Source of the DNA: an uncultured bacterium
GTDB taxonomy: Bacteria > Babelota > Babeliae > Babelales > Babelaceae
Assembly (NCBI GenBank): GCA_963819815.1
Contig: CAWFXL010000001.1
Coordinates: 1,472,001-1,536,000 of the forward strand
Direction: 5' to 3'
DNA: 64,000 nt
Part shown: piece by piece, positions 33,001-36,000 of the stretch
Position numbering within the stretch: the stretch's first letter is position 1
How the letters are laid out: the number at the start of each line of letters is the position of its first letter
Program-made: the position numbers

Positions 33001-36000
33001 GGGTGTGATAATTGATCCTTCTCTTAACGCTTTTAGTTCCTTAGGACTTGGCATTGCCATCCCAGCAGAATGCTGCCAACTGTATGCAAATATTGCGAAA
33101 GCGATACAAGATATGGAAGATGAAGGTGTTCTTGCTGCAATGCGTGCTAAATGGGGAACTGGCTCGTTCACGCCTCCTGCAGTGAACTTAGTACCTTCAG
33201 GTTGTGCGAATACTACCGCAAACATTAACAGCAATGCGATTGCTAATTATATCTTCACGAAGTACTGTCCTCAGGTAGCAACAATTGTTTCTCCTGAATA
33301 AGTATCATTAGTTGATGTATACAAAGGGAGTGCGTAAGCACTCCCTGCCAATCTCCGCTCCTTTAAATGTTTCATAGCTATCCCTGAACATTCAACTATT
33401 AAGGACAAAATCGCTAAGCCTAAGATTAATTTTGGGGCATTTCTGTGTTGCTCGAATTGATTAAAGGGTGATGCTTCTGGAAAAGTAGGCATCTATACGG
33501 TTCTACTGGCTGACTAATTCAAGTTGTTGCTCAATATTTGCTTTGGACAGACTCAATTGATTTATTGGCCATCCTATTTAGCCTTTTGATCGACATTATT
33601 GATCTGTTAAAAATTTGGCGCATTATAGGAATTTATAATGCGCCAAATTTTTGAATCTTTTTGAAAATTTGGCGCATTATAAAAAATTTTCATGATTAAT
33701 CCTAATGATCCAACTTTTCATCCAGATCGTTATATCAGAGGGGTTGAAAAAATTTGGCGCATTATAGAGTTTTATAGCGCGCCAAATTTATCTATTGACT
33801 AAAGAATTTTGGCGCATTATAATAAGGGGAGCAAGCAAAAATGAGGGAGTCTATGATTATCGGAAGAAAAAGGGAAATAAGGCAGCTTGAAAGAGCATAC
33901 ACTGACAAGAAAGCACATTTTATAACGGTGTATGGTCGAAGGCGGGTTGGAAAAACCTTTCTCGTAAGGGAGTTTTTTTCAGAAAAAGAATGTACTTTTT
34001 TTCATGTAACCGGCGTGCACAAGGAAAAATTAGCAGCACAACTTGAAAATTTTGCTCGCTCAATGAGTAAGACTTTTTTTGCACAGGGTCCTTTGAGGGA
34101 GCTTTCTAATTGGAAGGATGCTTTTGATCTTCTTGATAGAGAAATTGCGCAAAGGCAAGGTAAGATAGTTCTTTTCTTTGATGAGCTGCCCTGGCTTGCT
34201 ACACCTCGGTCGAATATAATGGGGCAGATCGATTTTTTCTGGAATAATCGTTGGTCGGGCATGCCGAATGTTATTCTTATTGTGTGTGGTTCATCGGCAT
34301 CTTGGCTACTTAATAATATCATATACCACAAGGGCGGATTATATAATCGTACGACCACAGAAATACAATTAATGCCATTTGATTTGCACGAGACCGCTGA
34401 GTTTTTGCTCAGCAAGAAAATAAAGCTTGCTCATGAACAGGTTCTGAAGTTGTATATGGCTGTAGGTGGTATTCCCTTTTATTTGGATTATGCGGAGAAG
34501 GGATATACAATCCAGCAAATTATTCAGCAACTTTTTTTTGATGTTCGGGCACCTTTAAAAAACGAATATAGAAAATTGTTTGAATCTCTTTTTAACACAG
34601 CTGAAGCCTATCGGGAGCTTGTGGAGATTGTTGCTCGAAAAAAAGATGGTCTAGAGCGTTCTGAAATTATTAAGGAAGCGCAGTTTTCCACTGGAGGCCA
34701 TTTGACCCGTAGACTCAAGAGTCTCTGTGATGCAGGTTTCTTAAAAGAGTTCACTCCCTGGGGGAAACAGTACCAGACCTACTATAAAGTTATCGATGAA
34801 TTCTGTCTTTTCTATCTACGTTGGATAAAAGATGAGAACCATACTTTTGATCCAGATCATTGGATATTGCAGAGTCGGAGTCCTGCATATTATGCCTGGG
34901 CAGGGTATGCCTTTGAGTCGGTGTGTATGAAGCATATCTATCAGATCTCAAGGGCACTTGGCATAAAAACGGGGATAAAAATAGGGTCCTGGAAATATAT
35001 TCCTTCGGGGAATGAAGACCACGGCGCACAAATTGACCTGGTTATAGAGCGCGTAGATGATGGGATAAATCTTTGCGAAATTAAATATACGGAAAAACCA
35101 TTTTCCATTGATAAAAAATATGCAACAGAGCTTACCCATAAAGTAGAGCTCTTTACAAAAAAAGAACATAGTAAGAAACAAGTATTTCTTTCGATGGTTT
35201 CTGCAGGTGGACTAGCGAAAACAATGTACTCTGAAGAACTTGTGAGTGGAGTGGTAACACTTGACGATCTATTTAGATCACTTGGATAATCTGAGCCCTT
35301 TCTATCATCTGGTATCATGCAGGATGAGCATGGCATGTTTTCTTTCATAGCTTCACATTCAGGCGCAATTTCAGTAGACTATCATAAAGAATTAGGGGCC
35401 CATAGCTCAGCGGTTAGAGCAATCGGCTCATAACCGAGAGGTCCCAGGTTCAAATCCTGGTGGGCCCACCAAAACCTCGGCGGTACAAAAGCATGCAAAA
35501 TGAACAGGTGGCAGCTTTTATTGAGCTTGTTGAATTAGATCAACGGCTTAGTCGCCTTTCGCGGCAGCAGGAAGAAGATGTTGCAAAAAAGGATACGCTA
35601 CTTAAGGAGATCGAACAGATCGACAAAGATGTTGCGCATGCTGATAAGGTCGTTCATGATACCCAAAAAAAGATGCATGAGCTTGAGCTTGATCTAAAAA
35701 CTATCGATCGCAACCTTGCCCGAACACAGGAAAAACTTTTGAGCGCACATTCTCAAAAAGAGCTCGATTCATTGGAGCATGAGAAAACCGATCTTGAAAA
35801 CAAGCGAGAATTACGGGATGAGCAAGGACTCGTGCTGCTTGAAGAATTAGAGCAGGCTCGAGCACAAGCTGTAAAGCTTCGTGCCAAAGCACCCGAAGCC
35901 CATCAAGAAAAAAAACAGGAACTTACAGCGCTTACTGAGCAGATGGACAAGCTAGAAATATCTCGATCAAATCTTAGTGCTCGCCGTGATGAGCTGGAAT

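Follow-up and report, generated by a model that had tools for sequence, protein, structure and literature searches.

The ATPase-nuclease genes studied here are preceded by arrays of a short word, and the best reading of the sequence comparisons is that each gene's own product probably represses its own gene through the array upstream of it. Because the array changes in step with the predicted DNA-reading helix of the adjacent protein, each protein most likely shuts off its own gene. The example gene lies in the window, the 64-kb stretch of DNA that was analysed, and its locus has the following features:

33355..35316, plus strand: whole module (left flank, operator arrays, promoter and gene), 1.96 kb, bounds approximate to a few bases
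33611..33681: predicted distal operator unit, with an inverted pair at 33611-33627 (+) and 33634-33650 (-) and a third copy at 33665-33681 (+)
33750..33821: predicted proximal operator unit, with an inverted pair at 33750-33766 (+) and 33773-33789 (-) and a third copy at 33805-33821 (+)
33795..33823, plus strand: predicted sigma-70-type promoter (TTGACT, 17 nt, TATAAT), from an 11/12 consensus match only
33853..35289, plus strand: AAA+ / winged-helix / PD-(D/E)xK protein of 478 aa, with ATPase_2 and PDC-S27 matches and a model pLDDT of 90
35396..35471, plus strand: tRNA-Met (CAT), adjoining the right side of the module

The word AAATTTGGCGCATTATA occurs in six copies at window positions 33611-33821, allowing at most 3 mismatches, and nowhere else in the 64 kb. 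The chance expectation is 0.31 copies, and six were reached in 0 of 100 shuffles. The survey's finding that words are repeated upstream of this gene is borne out, with six copies on recount where five had been counted. The two operator units have identical internal spacing at an offset of 139 nt; within the proximal unit, the copy at 33773-33789 (-) carries 2 mismatches and the copy at 33805-33821 (+) carries 1. An alternative in-frame ATG at 33841 would give a product of 482 aa, and the start at 33853 is favoured because of the GAGGGAG at 33843-33849. The stretch from the GAPDH gene to tRNA-Met (CAT) differs in length from one species of the genus to another. Small shares of the words of this locus were present in three soil DNA runs only, and the locus was listed for no RNA run.

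The example protein matches Pfam ATPase_2 (PF01637) with 77.5 bits (cut-off 33.2) and the PADLOC profile PDC-S27 (PDLC04984) with E = 5.1e-169, residues 2-474 aligning to profile positions 4-473 of 474. Its Pfam matches are limited to ATPase_2, AAA_16, AAA_14 and AAA_22; the nuclease family DUF234 (PF03008) was not matched at E <= 0.01 in the Pfam profile search, and some homologs have a precomputed PF03008 hit. The model divides into three domains:

33853..34545, plus strand: AAA+ ATPase domain, model residues 5-235, with Walker A GKT 37-39, Walker B DE 114-115 and R170
34597..34794, plus strand: predicted winged helix, model residues 253-318, with recognition helix 285-297 and wing strands 301-304 and 314-317
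34858..35274, plus strand: PD-(D/E)xK nuclease-like domain, model residues 340-478, with D399, E413 and K415

D399, E413 and K415 do not vary among 25 homologs or among the genome's 11 paralogs; the E..D..ExK pattern is retained in 12 of the 21 aligned DUF4143 proteins. AF2 models, one per family, have pLDDT values of 90 and 88 and place a winged helix between ATPase and nuclease in both cases, so that the predicted order in both families is AAA+, winged helix, PD-(D/E)xK nuclease. Among solved structures, the archaeal AAA+ proteins 2qen and 2fna come closest in fold, followed by STAND proteins and DNA-bound Orc1/Cdc6; Foldseek matches to 2qby, 2v1u, 1fnn and ORC chains have E values of 1e-8 to 1e-5. 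A homodimer prediction for the example protein scored 0.00 and was counted neither way.

The window also holds a gene of the second family and a truncated relative:

60743..61939, minus strand: AAA_14 plus DUF4143 gene (PDC-S01), 398 aa, of the ~390-aa subfamily; DUF4143 148.7 bits, AAA_14 98.7 bits
62199..62313, plus strand: array of ACGTTTTTCyAAsGAATA, with three direct copies (62231, 62264 and 62296) and one inverted copy (62199-62220)

The product of the former matches the PDC-S01 profile with E = 6e-95, and its gene has merely two word copies upstream. The direct copies of the latter are set at steps of 33 and 32 nt, and the array directly precedes a truncated DUF4143 ORF (62320-62688). 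A further gene, 1398336, matches DUF4143 with 96.3 bits and AAA_14 with 77.3 bits, both above cut-off.

Across the genome, our count of family genes agrees with the 32 reported by the survey, comprising 11 ATPase_2 genes over cut-off and 21 AAA_14/DUF4143 genes; three are broken or truncated. Enrichment of repeated words was recounted on a crude set of 1364 ORFs, taking the most repeated 13-mer with 1 mismatch allowed on both strands. At least three copies were found in the 300 nt upstream of 14 of the 32 family genes versus 13 of 1332 others, three of which share their intergenic region with a family gene; at least two copies were found for 25 of 32 versus 196 of 1332. When the region was extended to take in 350 nt upstream and 60 nt of the ORF itself, the latter added to absorb mis-called starts, the numbers for at least three copies became 17 of 32 versus 16 of 1332 (Fisher p = 1e-21), leaving 15 of 32 family genes below that count. 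Among 863 intergenic stretches of more than 60 nt, 19 carry at least three exact 10-mers, and 11 of these 19 lie directly upstream of a family gene, a position held by 29 stretches in all (p = 5e-13). The enrichment and intergenic counts given earlier are thus reproduced within small differences. The claim that no word has a second cluster holds in that 0-10 scattered single matches occur elsewhere, but two DUF4143 genes are exceptions, with two word copies each just downstream as well.

The arrays are peculiar neither to this genome nor to a parasite; they are a property of the families across phyla. Among PDC-S27 relatives from Dependentiae, Legionellales, Rickettsiales, Chlamydiae and others, 48 of the 76 loci that could be scored have at least three copies upstream, versus 2 of 70 downstream and 0 of 76 after shuffling; within the genus the numbers were 21 of 30 upstream and 1 of 29 downstream. 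In metagenomes, scanned with a query alignment of five closer paralogs, the ~450-aa DUF4143 subfamily has arrays in 16 of 70 loci (downstream 2 of 59, shuffled 0 of 70), with a 33-nt period and a spacing of 32-34 nt in 39 of 54 adjacent same-strand pairs. Being general across loci, the arrays are therefore no local accident. However, the view that they are typical of both families stands for PDC-S27 and the ~450-aa subfamily and fails for the ~390-aa subfamily, where just 2 of 30 loci reach three copies, a rate not above that of the controls, and two copies give no count signal (22 of 30 upstream, 14 of 29 downstream, 12 of 30 shuffles). Many loci of this last subfamily do appear to have one inverted pair at -20 to -80. 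Among 12 distant plasmid-borne relatives with 20-44% identity, from haloarchaea, Bacteroidota, Rhizobium and others, eight have one proximal word pair, and counts are not above shuffles.

Word positions are mostly 0-150 nt before the start; of 61 loci, only 3 have the upstream word again downstream and 2 have it within the gene. The PDC-S27 words are variants of one template, yTATAAK-NNN-GC-N..., in which half-sites form head-to-head pairs with TATAA ends 5-6 nt apart and units repeat about every 55 bp; this array geometry is conserved across phyla. The notion of a private word for each gene holds within one genome; for instance, all words differ among 18 paralogs examined in one relative. Arrays of 4-5 copies also persist beside broken genes (L164, L171 and L172). 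But privacy is limited to that level, because all words vary on the shared template and some are common to related genes of other genomes and genera.

The covariation of protein and word was analyzed in 60 loci over 478 x 20 residue-base pairs with 300 label permutations. The top pair was half-site base 9 and residue 287, which sits where the predicted recognition helix begins, with a mutual information of 1.02 bit against a permutation maximum of 0.96; the residue was chosen post hoc and passes the family-wise permutation. Arg occurs with G in 34 loci and with another base in one, whereas other residues occur with G in five loci and with another base in 20. Over 9 independent pairs on supported branches, on average about 7.2 differ in the same direction, 0.0 in the opposite direction and 1.8 show no difference (median p = 0.016), and one opposite pair appears in a few of 200 pairings. 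Thr at residue 287 accompanies A in 6 of 8 loci, and Leu, His and Tyr accompany C in 7 of 7; the example protein itself has His. Held-out loci gave Thr with A in 3 of 3 and, read by eye, Arg with G in the single readable Arg locus, while the Tyr rule failed there, with A in 2 of 2.

At the level of whole domains, word distance followed protein distance most closely in the winged helix (Spearman 0.306), ahead of the ATPase (0.260) and the nuclease (0.215); correlations in the latter two are what co-inheritance would predict. The best contiguous window of 66 residues begins at residue 251, and 13 of 500 random sets of 66 columns reached 0.306. Six of the top 30 single columns fall in the winged helix versus 4.1 expected (p = 0.22).

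Close orthologs in G000 and G001 differ at 25 of 480 residues, including five consecutive changes just before the recognition helix that take in residue 284, the second-best covarying column; every operator copy visible in the alignment has made the same shift, TTGTCCTAG becoming TTGGCCCAG. Such a concerted change could also come from gene conversion between copies, without a protein partner. In another ortholog pair, 1 of 51 positions differs inside words versus 59 of 211 outside. Pooling three ortholog pairs gives p = 0.03 for the difference between inside and outside, but the deletion of a 54-nt unit from one of the pairs confounds this test, and the pairs are therefore reported singly. Together, the predicted winged helix, the residue-base covariation and the concerted operator change make it most likely that the product binds its own word, as had been proposed.

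The position of the words suggests the sign of the regulation. In the example locus, the proximal word fills the -35/-10 spacer of the predicted promoter and overlaps the -10 hexamer, so binding would be expected to shut the promoter. Of the 43 loci that have a promoter-like site, 31 show a half-site overlapping its -10 hexamer (random placement: mean 16.2, maximum 25), a statistic that is partly circular because every half-site contains TATAA. We propose that the winged helix reads a word of about 16 bp repeated across the promoter of its own gene, that the proteins would physically contact these words and may assemble as oligomers on the array, and that an ATP-dependent nuclease with the potential to do harm would in this way, to judge by position only, hold down its own expression. 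The word's variable core changes in step with the beginning of the recognition helix, so that paralogs in one genome would keep separate feedback loops without cross-talk, and gene and array would come and go together. It is not plausible that some 1.6 Mb of genome could hold a separate dedicated regulator for each paralog.

That gene and array form a self-contained module, as the survey had it, is seen in a near relative, G001, which lacks the whole 1.96-kb unit at the same place. Contig G001:C16 aligns to window positions 32425-33344 (87%) and 35318-37900 (95%), leaving only some 32 bases unaligned in the middle, and the alignment sets the junctions near 33355 and 35316. Of four further modules compared with this 67%-complete genome, three were uninformative, their flanks not being found, and the fourth is conserved at 91%. 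Such presence and absence between flanks of about 95% identity invites an alternative in which the arrays are where the nuclease acts, or else serve a small mobile element as its recombination ends, and binding serves to cut or move the module. This we hold to be unlikely, although several observations fit it: in G001 a methyltransferase gene takes the place of another module, of which a remnant of 26 residues is left, genomes of a single genus carry anything from 1 to 36 copies, relatives at 40-57% identity occur in unrelated intracellular lineages and on plasmids, the nuclease residues are conserved, and the left end of the inserted DNA carries a diverged copy of a 19-nt sequence sited 28 nt right of the right junction. 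The available part of one report also describes the families as embedded in other defence operons (bioRxiv 10.1101/2024.01.29.577857). On the other hand, the words are confined to one side of the gene, their geometry follows promoter and start codon, and no target-site duplication was seen at the module junctions. Terminal inverted repeats or transposon ends were rejected on the rarity of the word downstream of the gene or inside it (3 and 2 of 61 loci), and a recent transposition burst was rejected on the absence of near-identical copies within a genome, the closest paralog being at most 62% identical in the 36-copy genome. Mobility of this kind is compatible with autoregulation.

Two other explanations are each very improbable in our estimate. 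Archaeal orc1 genes adjoin their origins with origin recognition boxes, and iteron plasmids carry direct and inverted repeats of one word beside a rep gene whose product represses itself. The arrays could by analogy be origin-like iterons where an Orc1/Cdc6-like initiator assembles, as relic or working origins of integrated replicons; the AAA+ and winged-helix fold does resemble Orc1/Cdc6 and ORC bound to origin DNA, and inverted and direct words are clustered beside the protein's own gene. However, the example protein matches no Pfam Cdc6/Orc family, its C-terminal domain is a nuclease, which initiators lack, and the 32 modules in 1.6 Mb are single genes with no adjoining helicase or other replication gene. 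The family has tens of copies per genome, its sites overlap the gene's own promoter, and no obvious AT-rich unwinding stretch separates the units when the sequence is read by eye. From iteron plasmids the modules differ in fold and function, in the lack of a replication context and in fixed steps of 33 or 55 bp. The remaining explanation, that another host factor binds the words or that they are non-functional duplications left by insertion, draws on the arrays that persist next to broken genes (L164, L171 and L172) and at window 62199-62313, and on the fact that binding by the gene's own product is something we infer. Against it, the words differ for every paralog in the genome, and therefore one factor cannot serve all; they also co-vary with the recognition helix of the adjacent protein, keep their array geometry across phyla and stay conserved where the spacers have diverged.

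Autorepression by the gene's own product has parallels in known systems. In restriction-modification systems with C proteins and C-boxes, and in toxin-antitoxin operons, paired palindromic operators over the promoter restrain a harmful nuclease or toxin. The regulator there is a separate small HTH protein, whereas here the predicted DNA-reading domain lies inside the ATPase-nuclease and arrays reach up to 8 sites. Over the nucleotide-binding, helical and winged-helix domains, the best structural matches are STAND NTPases (MalT, Apaf-1/CED-4 and plant NLRs), 2qen and 2fna. The winged helix of STAND proteins serves chiefly as a conformational latch, whereas here it appears to read DNA. The example also differs from STAND NTPases in lacking sensor repeats, no repeat family having been matched, and in its C-terminal 140 residues, which form a nuclease-like alpha/beta domain.

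The example gene and the second gene of the window belong to families already listed by PADLOC as phage defence candidates, PDC-S27 (ATPase_2 plus DUF234-like nuclease) and PDC-S01 (AAA_14 plus DUF4143), respectively; in the portions of these sources that were available, both are described solely as ATPase plus PD-(D/E)xK, with no operator arrays or winged-helix specificity (PMC12988326; bioRxiv 10.1101/2024.01.29.577857). According to the same portion of the former source, PDC-S01 ranks fourth in frequency among defence candidates across prokaryotes and PDC-S27 is abundant too (PMC12988326). Full-text literature searches returned no paper on operator arrays or winged-helix specificity of either family. 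Any role of the two families in defence, such as the immune repertoire against foreign DNA that the survey proposed, would be a separate matter from the arrays, which speak for tight self-control of a nuclease and not for immunity or any particular target; a specificity of 2 x 16 bp that fits the promoter of the same gene points to regulation and not to invader recognition.

More tentatively, PDC-S27 and PDC-S01 may be natural orthogonal, sequence-addressed ATP-dependent nucleases whose specificity could be read off their own promoters by a residue-to-base code, with Arg going with G and Thr with A at half-site base 9. The resting winged helix would park the protein on its operator array and keep the gene silent; on activation the AAA+ module would oligomerise as in Orc1/STAND and leave the operators, so that triggering would be coupled to a burst of the protein's own synthesis. 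The 10-36 paralogs per genome would then act as independent, insulated circuits. What is new here is the predicted DNA-reading winged helix in PDC-S27 and PDC-S01 proteins, a target that would be predictable from the gene's own upstream region, and a specificity that appears to shift with identifiable residues. Arrays matched to their own proteins would explain how many paralogs coexist in one genome without cross-talk, and they make both families directly testable.

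The genome under study (1,644,148 bases in two contigs) encodes 11 ATPase_2 and 21 AAA_14/DUF4143 proteins, which reproduces the survey's count of 32 family genes; three of these genes are broken or truncated. For a recount of the upstream arrays we used a crude set of 1364 ORFs and scored the most repeated 13-mer with at most one mismatch on both strands. At least three copies were found in the 300 nt upstream of 14 of the 32 family genes versus 13 of 1332 other ORFs. Because starts may be mis-called, 60 nt inside the ORF were added to the upstream 350 nt, and the numbers became 17 of 32 versus 16 of 1332 (p = 1e-21), so that the enrichment of arrays reported for the two families stands. 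Among 863 intergenic stretches longer than 60 nt, 19 contain at least three copies of an exact 10-mer, and 11 of the 19 immediately precede a family gene (p = 5e-13). In the rest of the genome the family words occur as 0-10 scattered single matches. Some further word repeats were also observed:

Window 7753-8080: TAACCAATAA in four copies, upstream of the topoisomerase I gene (5269-7752, - strand), with the 13-mer TTATTGGTTAAAA in three copies on both strands; not linked to the ATPase_2 or DUF4143 families
Contig C1 97502-97601 and 1370337-1370371, outside the window: two copies each of the upstream word of a DUF4143 gene (C1 96195-97403 and 1370446-1371678, respectively), just downstream of that gene
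Contig C1 110241-110522, 1271497-1271933, upstream of gene 1018624, and 1578682-1581326, outside the window: intergenic 13-mer arrays of 3-4 copies, preceding non-family genes

The example gene of the ATPase_2 family is organized as follows:

Window 33611-33821: AAATTTGGCGCATTATA in six copies (four + strand, two - strand); mismatches 0, 0, 0, 0, 2 and 1
Window 33795-33823: best promoter-like site in 33300-35500, TTGACT (33795), 17 nt, TATAAT (33818-33823), 11 of 12 matches
Window 33841-35289, + strand: ORF downstream of the array; a start at the in-frame ATG 33853 is likelier, since GAGGGAG precedes it

Six copies of AAATTTGGCGCATTATA compare with 0.31 expected by chance and were reached in none of 100 shuffles; the word is absent from the rest of the 64-kb window. 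The copies form two similar units offset by 139 nt, each consisting of an inverted pair and a third copy 31-32 nt further on. The encoded protein scores 77.5 bits against Pfam ATPase_2 (cut-off 33.2) and is a full-length match to the PADLOC candidate PDC-S27 (E = 5e-169). In its AlphaFold2 model (25-sequence alignment, pLDDT 90), residues 5-235 fold as an AAA+ domain and residues 253-318 as a winged helix, whose helix 3 spans 285-297 and whose wing has two strands; residues 340-478 form an alpha/beta domain bearing D399, E413 and K415. None of these three residues varies across 25 homologs and all 11 paralogs, and the same is true of Walker A, Walker B and R170. The domain order is the same in the model of the DUF4143-type paralog 1398336 (18-sequence alignment, pLDDT 88). 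For both models the best solved structural neighbours are the archaeal AAA+ proteins 2qen and 2fna, followed by STAND proteins (MalT, NLRs, Apaf-1/CED-4) and DNA-bound Orc1/Cdc6/ORC.

The arrays are no peculiarity of this genome. In nine other species of the genus, the PDC-S27 family yields 1-36 matches per genome, and it was found in only one of 21 genomes searched outside the genus. Within the genus, at least three upstream copies were found at 21 of 30 loci, two of the 21 being the same array, versus 1 of 29 downstream. At E <= 1e-10 the relatives of the example protein number at least 7992, and a scan of one genome per species yielded 80 PDC-S27 loci at 40-57% identity. Among the scorable relatives, 48 of 76 have at least three upstream copies, versus 2 of 70 in the downstream control and 0 of 76 in shuffled upstream regions. 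Most words lie within 150 nt of the start. They recur downstream in only 3 of 61 loci and within the gene in 2 of 61, and are therefore not terminal repeats. At two loci of other genomes (L026 in G003 and L029 in G004), the upstream word is also found 2-4 times just downstream of the gene; these copies may be the remains of an adjoining module.

When per-locus consensus words were aligned in register, 60 PDC-S27 loci fitted the template yTATAAK-NNN-GC-N..., whose inner end is AT-rich and constant and whose core is GC-rich and variable. The half-sites are paired head to head, and 81 of 87 pairs have 5-6 nt between the inner ends; successive units are spaced by 50-59 bp (34 of 46 cases), and at 40 of 60 loci the proximal site starts 20-49 nt ahead of the start codon. 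Since all words share this template, they are private in the core alone. The survey's description of a different word for every gene holds among paralogs within a genome, as all 18 examined paralogs of the 36-copy relative have different words (nearest pair 62% identical), but related genes elsewhere share words, such as GTGGCCCATCT in the PDC-S27 loci L043-L046 and TTGGAWTTTCGACCA in several genera of the DUF4143 family.

Whether the product reads its own word was approached through covariation at 60 loci, with word distance taken over positions 7-17. Word distance correlates with protein distance in all domains, as co-inheritance predicts. The Spearman correlation is strongest for the winged helix (0.306), followed by the ATPase (0.260) and nuclease (0.215) domains, and partial correlations amount to 0.19-0.23 in one direction and 0.07-0.10 in the opposite one. 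Among contiguous windows of 66 residues, the one beginning at residue 251 is best, and 0.306 was reached by 13 of 500 random 66-column sets. Of the single columns, residue 287 ranks highest; it is the third residue of the predicted recognition helix. Its pairing with base 9 tops all 478 x 20 residue-base pairs (1.02 bit) and is alone in exceeding 0.96, the highest value in 300 label permutations; the runner-up, residue 284 with base 13, also falls within the winged helix. The pairing at residue 287 makes chemical sense, with Arg-G in 34 of 35 loci, Thr-A in 6 of 8 and Leu/His/Tyr-C in 7 of 7. For independent contrasts, a tree was computed with the winged-helix columns excluded; on it, the Arg state has 12 changes. 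Supported branches provided nine independent pairs, of which about 7.2 change the same way and 1.8 show no difference (median p = 0.016); opposite changes averaged 0.0 (one in a few of 200 pairings). Held-out loci repeated Thr-A (3 of 3) and Arg-G in the sole readable Arg locus, its word being read by eye; the Tyr-C pattern was not upheld there, with Tyr-A in 2 of 2. Close orthologs were compared between this genome and a near relative (G001). Gene 1565285 and its ortholog there differ at 25 of 480 residues, including five consecutive substitutions at residues 282-284, just ahead of the helix, and every operator copy visible in the alignment is changed from TTGTCCTAG to TTGGCCCAG. For 1398336 and its ortholog, differences affect 1 of 51 word positions versus 59 of 211 outside the words.

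At the example gene, the proximal word (33805-33821) occupies the spacer of the predicted promoter and overlaps its -10 hexamer. At 31 of 43 loci, the best promoter-like site has its -10 hexamer overlapped by a half-site (random mean 16.2, maximum 25), a test that is partly circular because TATAA is present in every half-site. Autoregulation of the family genes by their own products is probable, with good indirect support, and given the overlap of half-sites with the predicted -10 and spacer, repression is its likeliest sign. The immune role put forward in the survey is a hypothesis.

The DUF4143 family consists of two subfamilies of ~390 and ~450 aa. In the shorter one (including window 60743-61939), at least three copies were found in 2 of 30 phylum genomes, not above controls. 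The longer one has arrays at 4 of 9 loci of other genera and at 16 of 70 metagenome loci, versus 2 of 59 in downstream and 0 of 70 in shuffled sequence. Its step is strikingly fixed, with 32-34 nt in 39 of 54 adjacent same-strand pairs. One such array has outlasted its gene:

Window 62199-62313: intact array of four words with a 33-nt period, directly before the truncated ORF
Window 62320-62688: truncated DUF4143 ORF, 122 aa, C-terminal part only

The near relative matches window 32425-33344 (87% identity) and 35318-37900 (95%) with ~32 bases between, and the arrays and gene from ~33355 to 35316 are missing from it. No target duplication was seen at these junctions; within the inserted DNA, the left end contains a diverged copy of a 19-nt sequence located 28 nt right of the right junction. 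More distant species have 80-175 bp between the GAPDH gene and tRNA-Met, or other DNA. Across the genus this stretch (window 30905-35471) varies from ~80 bp to ~3.9 kb; here it also holds a solute-binding-protein gene (32186-33301) shared with the near relative and not with more distant species. Module 1398336 is 91% conserved in the near relative and apparently frameshifted. At module 1166983, a methyltransferase gene is found there instead, together with 26 residues left over from the DUF4143 protein:

Locus L292 of the near relative (contig C1), 4134-5318: SAM-methyltransferase gene, 394 aa, then the DUF4143 remnant

With the example module absent and 1166983 replaced, modules are gained and lost whole and quickly. 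Record titles in the 80-locus scan name Dependentiae, Legionellales, Coxiellaceae, Francisellaceae, Rickettsiales, other Alpha- and Gammaproteobacteria, Parachlamydiales and a few others. Titled records of close relatives (40-57% identity; L037-L116, L195) come mostly from intracellular or protist-associated lineages, including the first five, Holosporales and Parachlamydiales, which suggests exchange within common hosts. One close relative is on a plasmid of an Acanthamoeba symbiont.

In the parts consulted, PDC-S27 and PDC-S01 are candidates for phage defence, described only as an ATPase plus PD-(D/E)xK (PMC12988326; bioRxiv 10.1101/2024.01.29.577857), and a 2012 superfamily survey enters DUF4143 as "Unknown". 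Full-text searches of the literature outside subscription journals turned up no study of upstream repeats or DNA specificity in either family. Functionally, the closest parallels are the control of restriction enzymes by C-proteins and C-boxes, autoregulated toxin-antitoxin operons, iteron Rep proteins, and archaeal Orc1 with its origin boxes. What differs here is that the putative reader domain belongs to the ATPase-nuclease itself, that the arrays are long and have a strict period, and that specificity diversifies across many paralogs.
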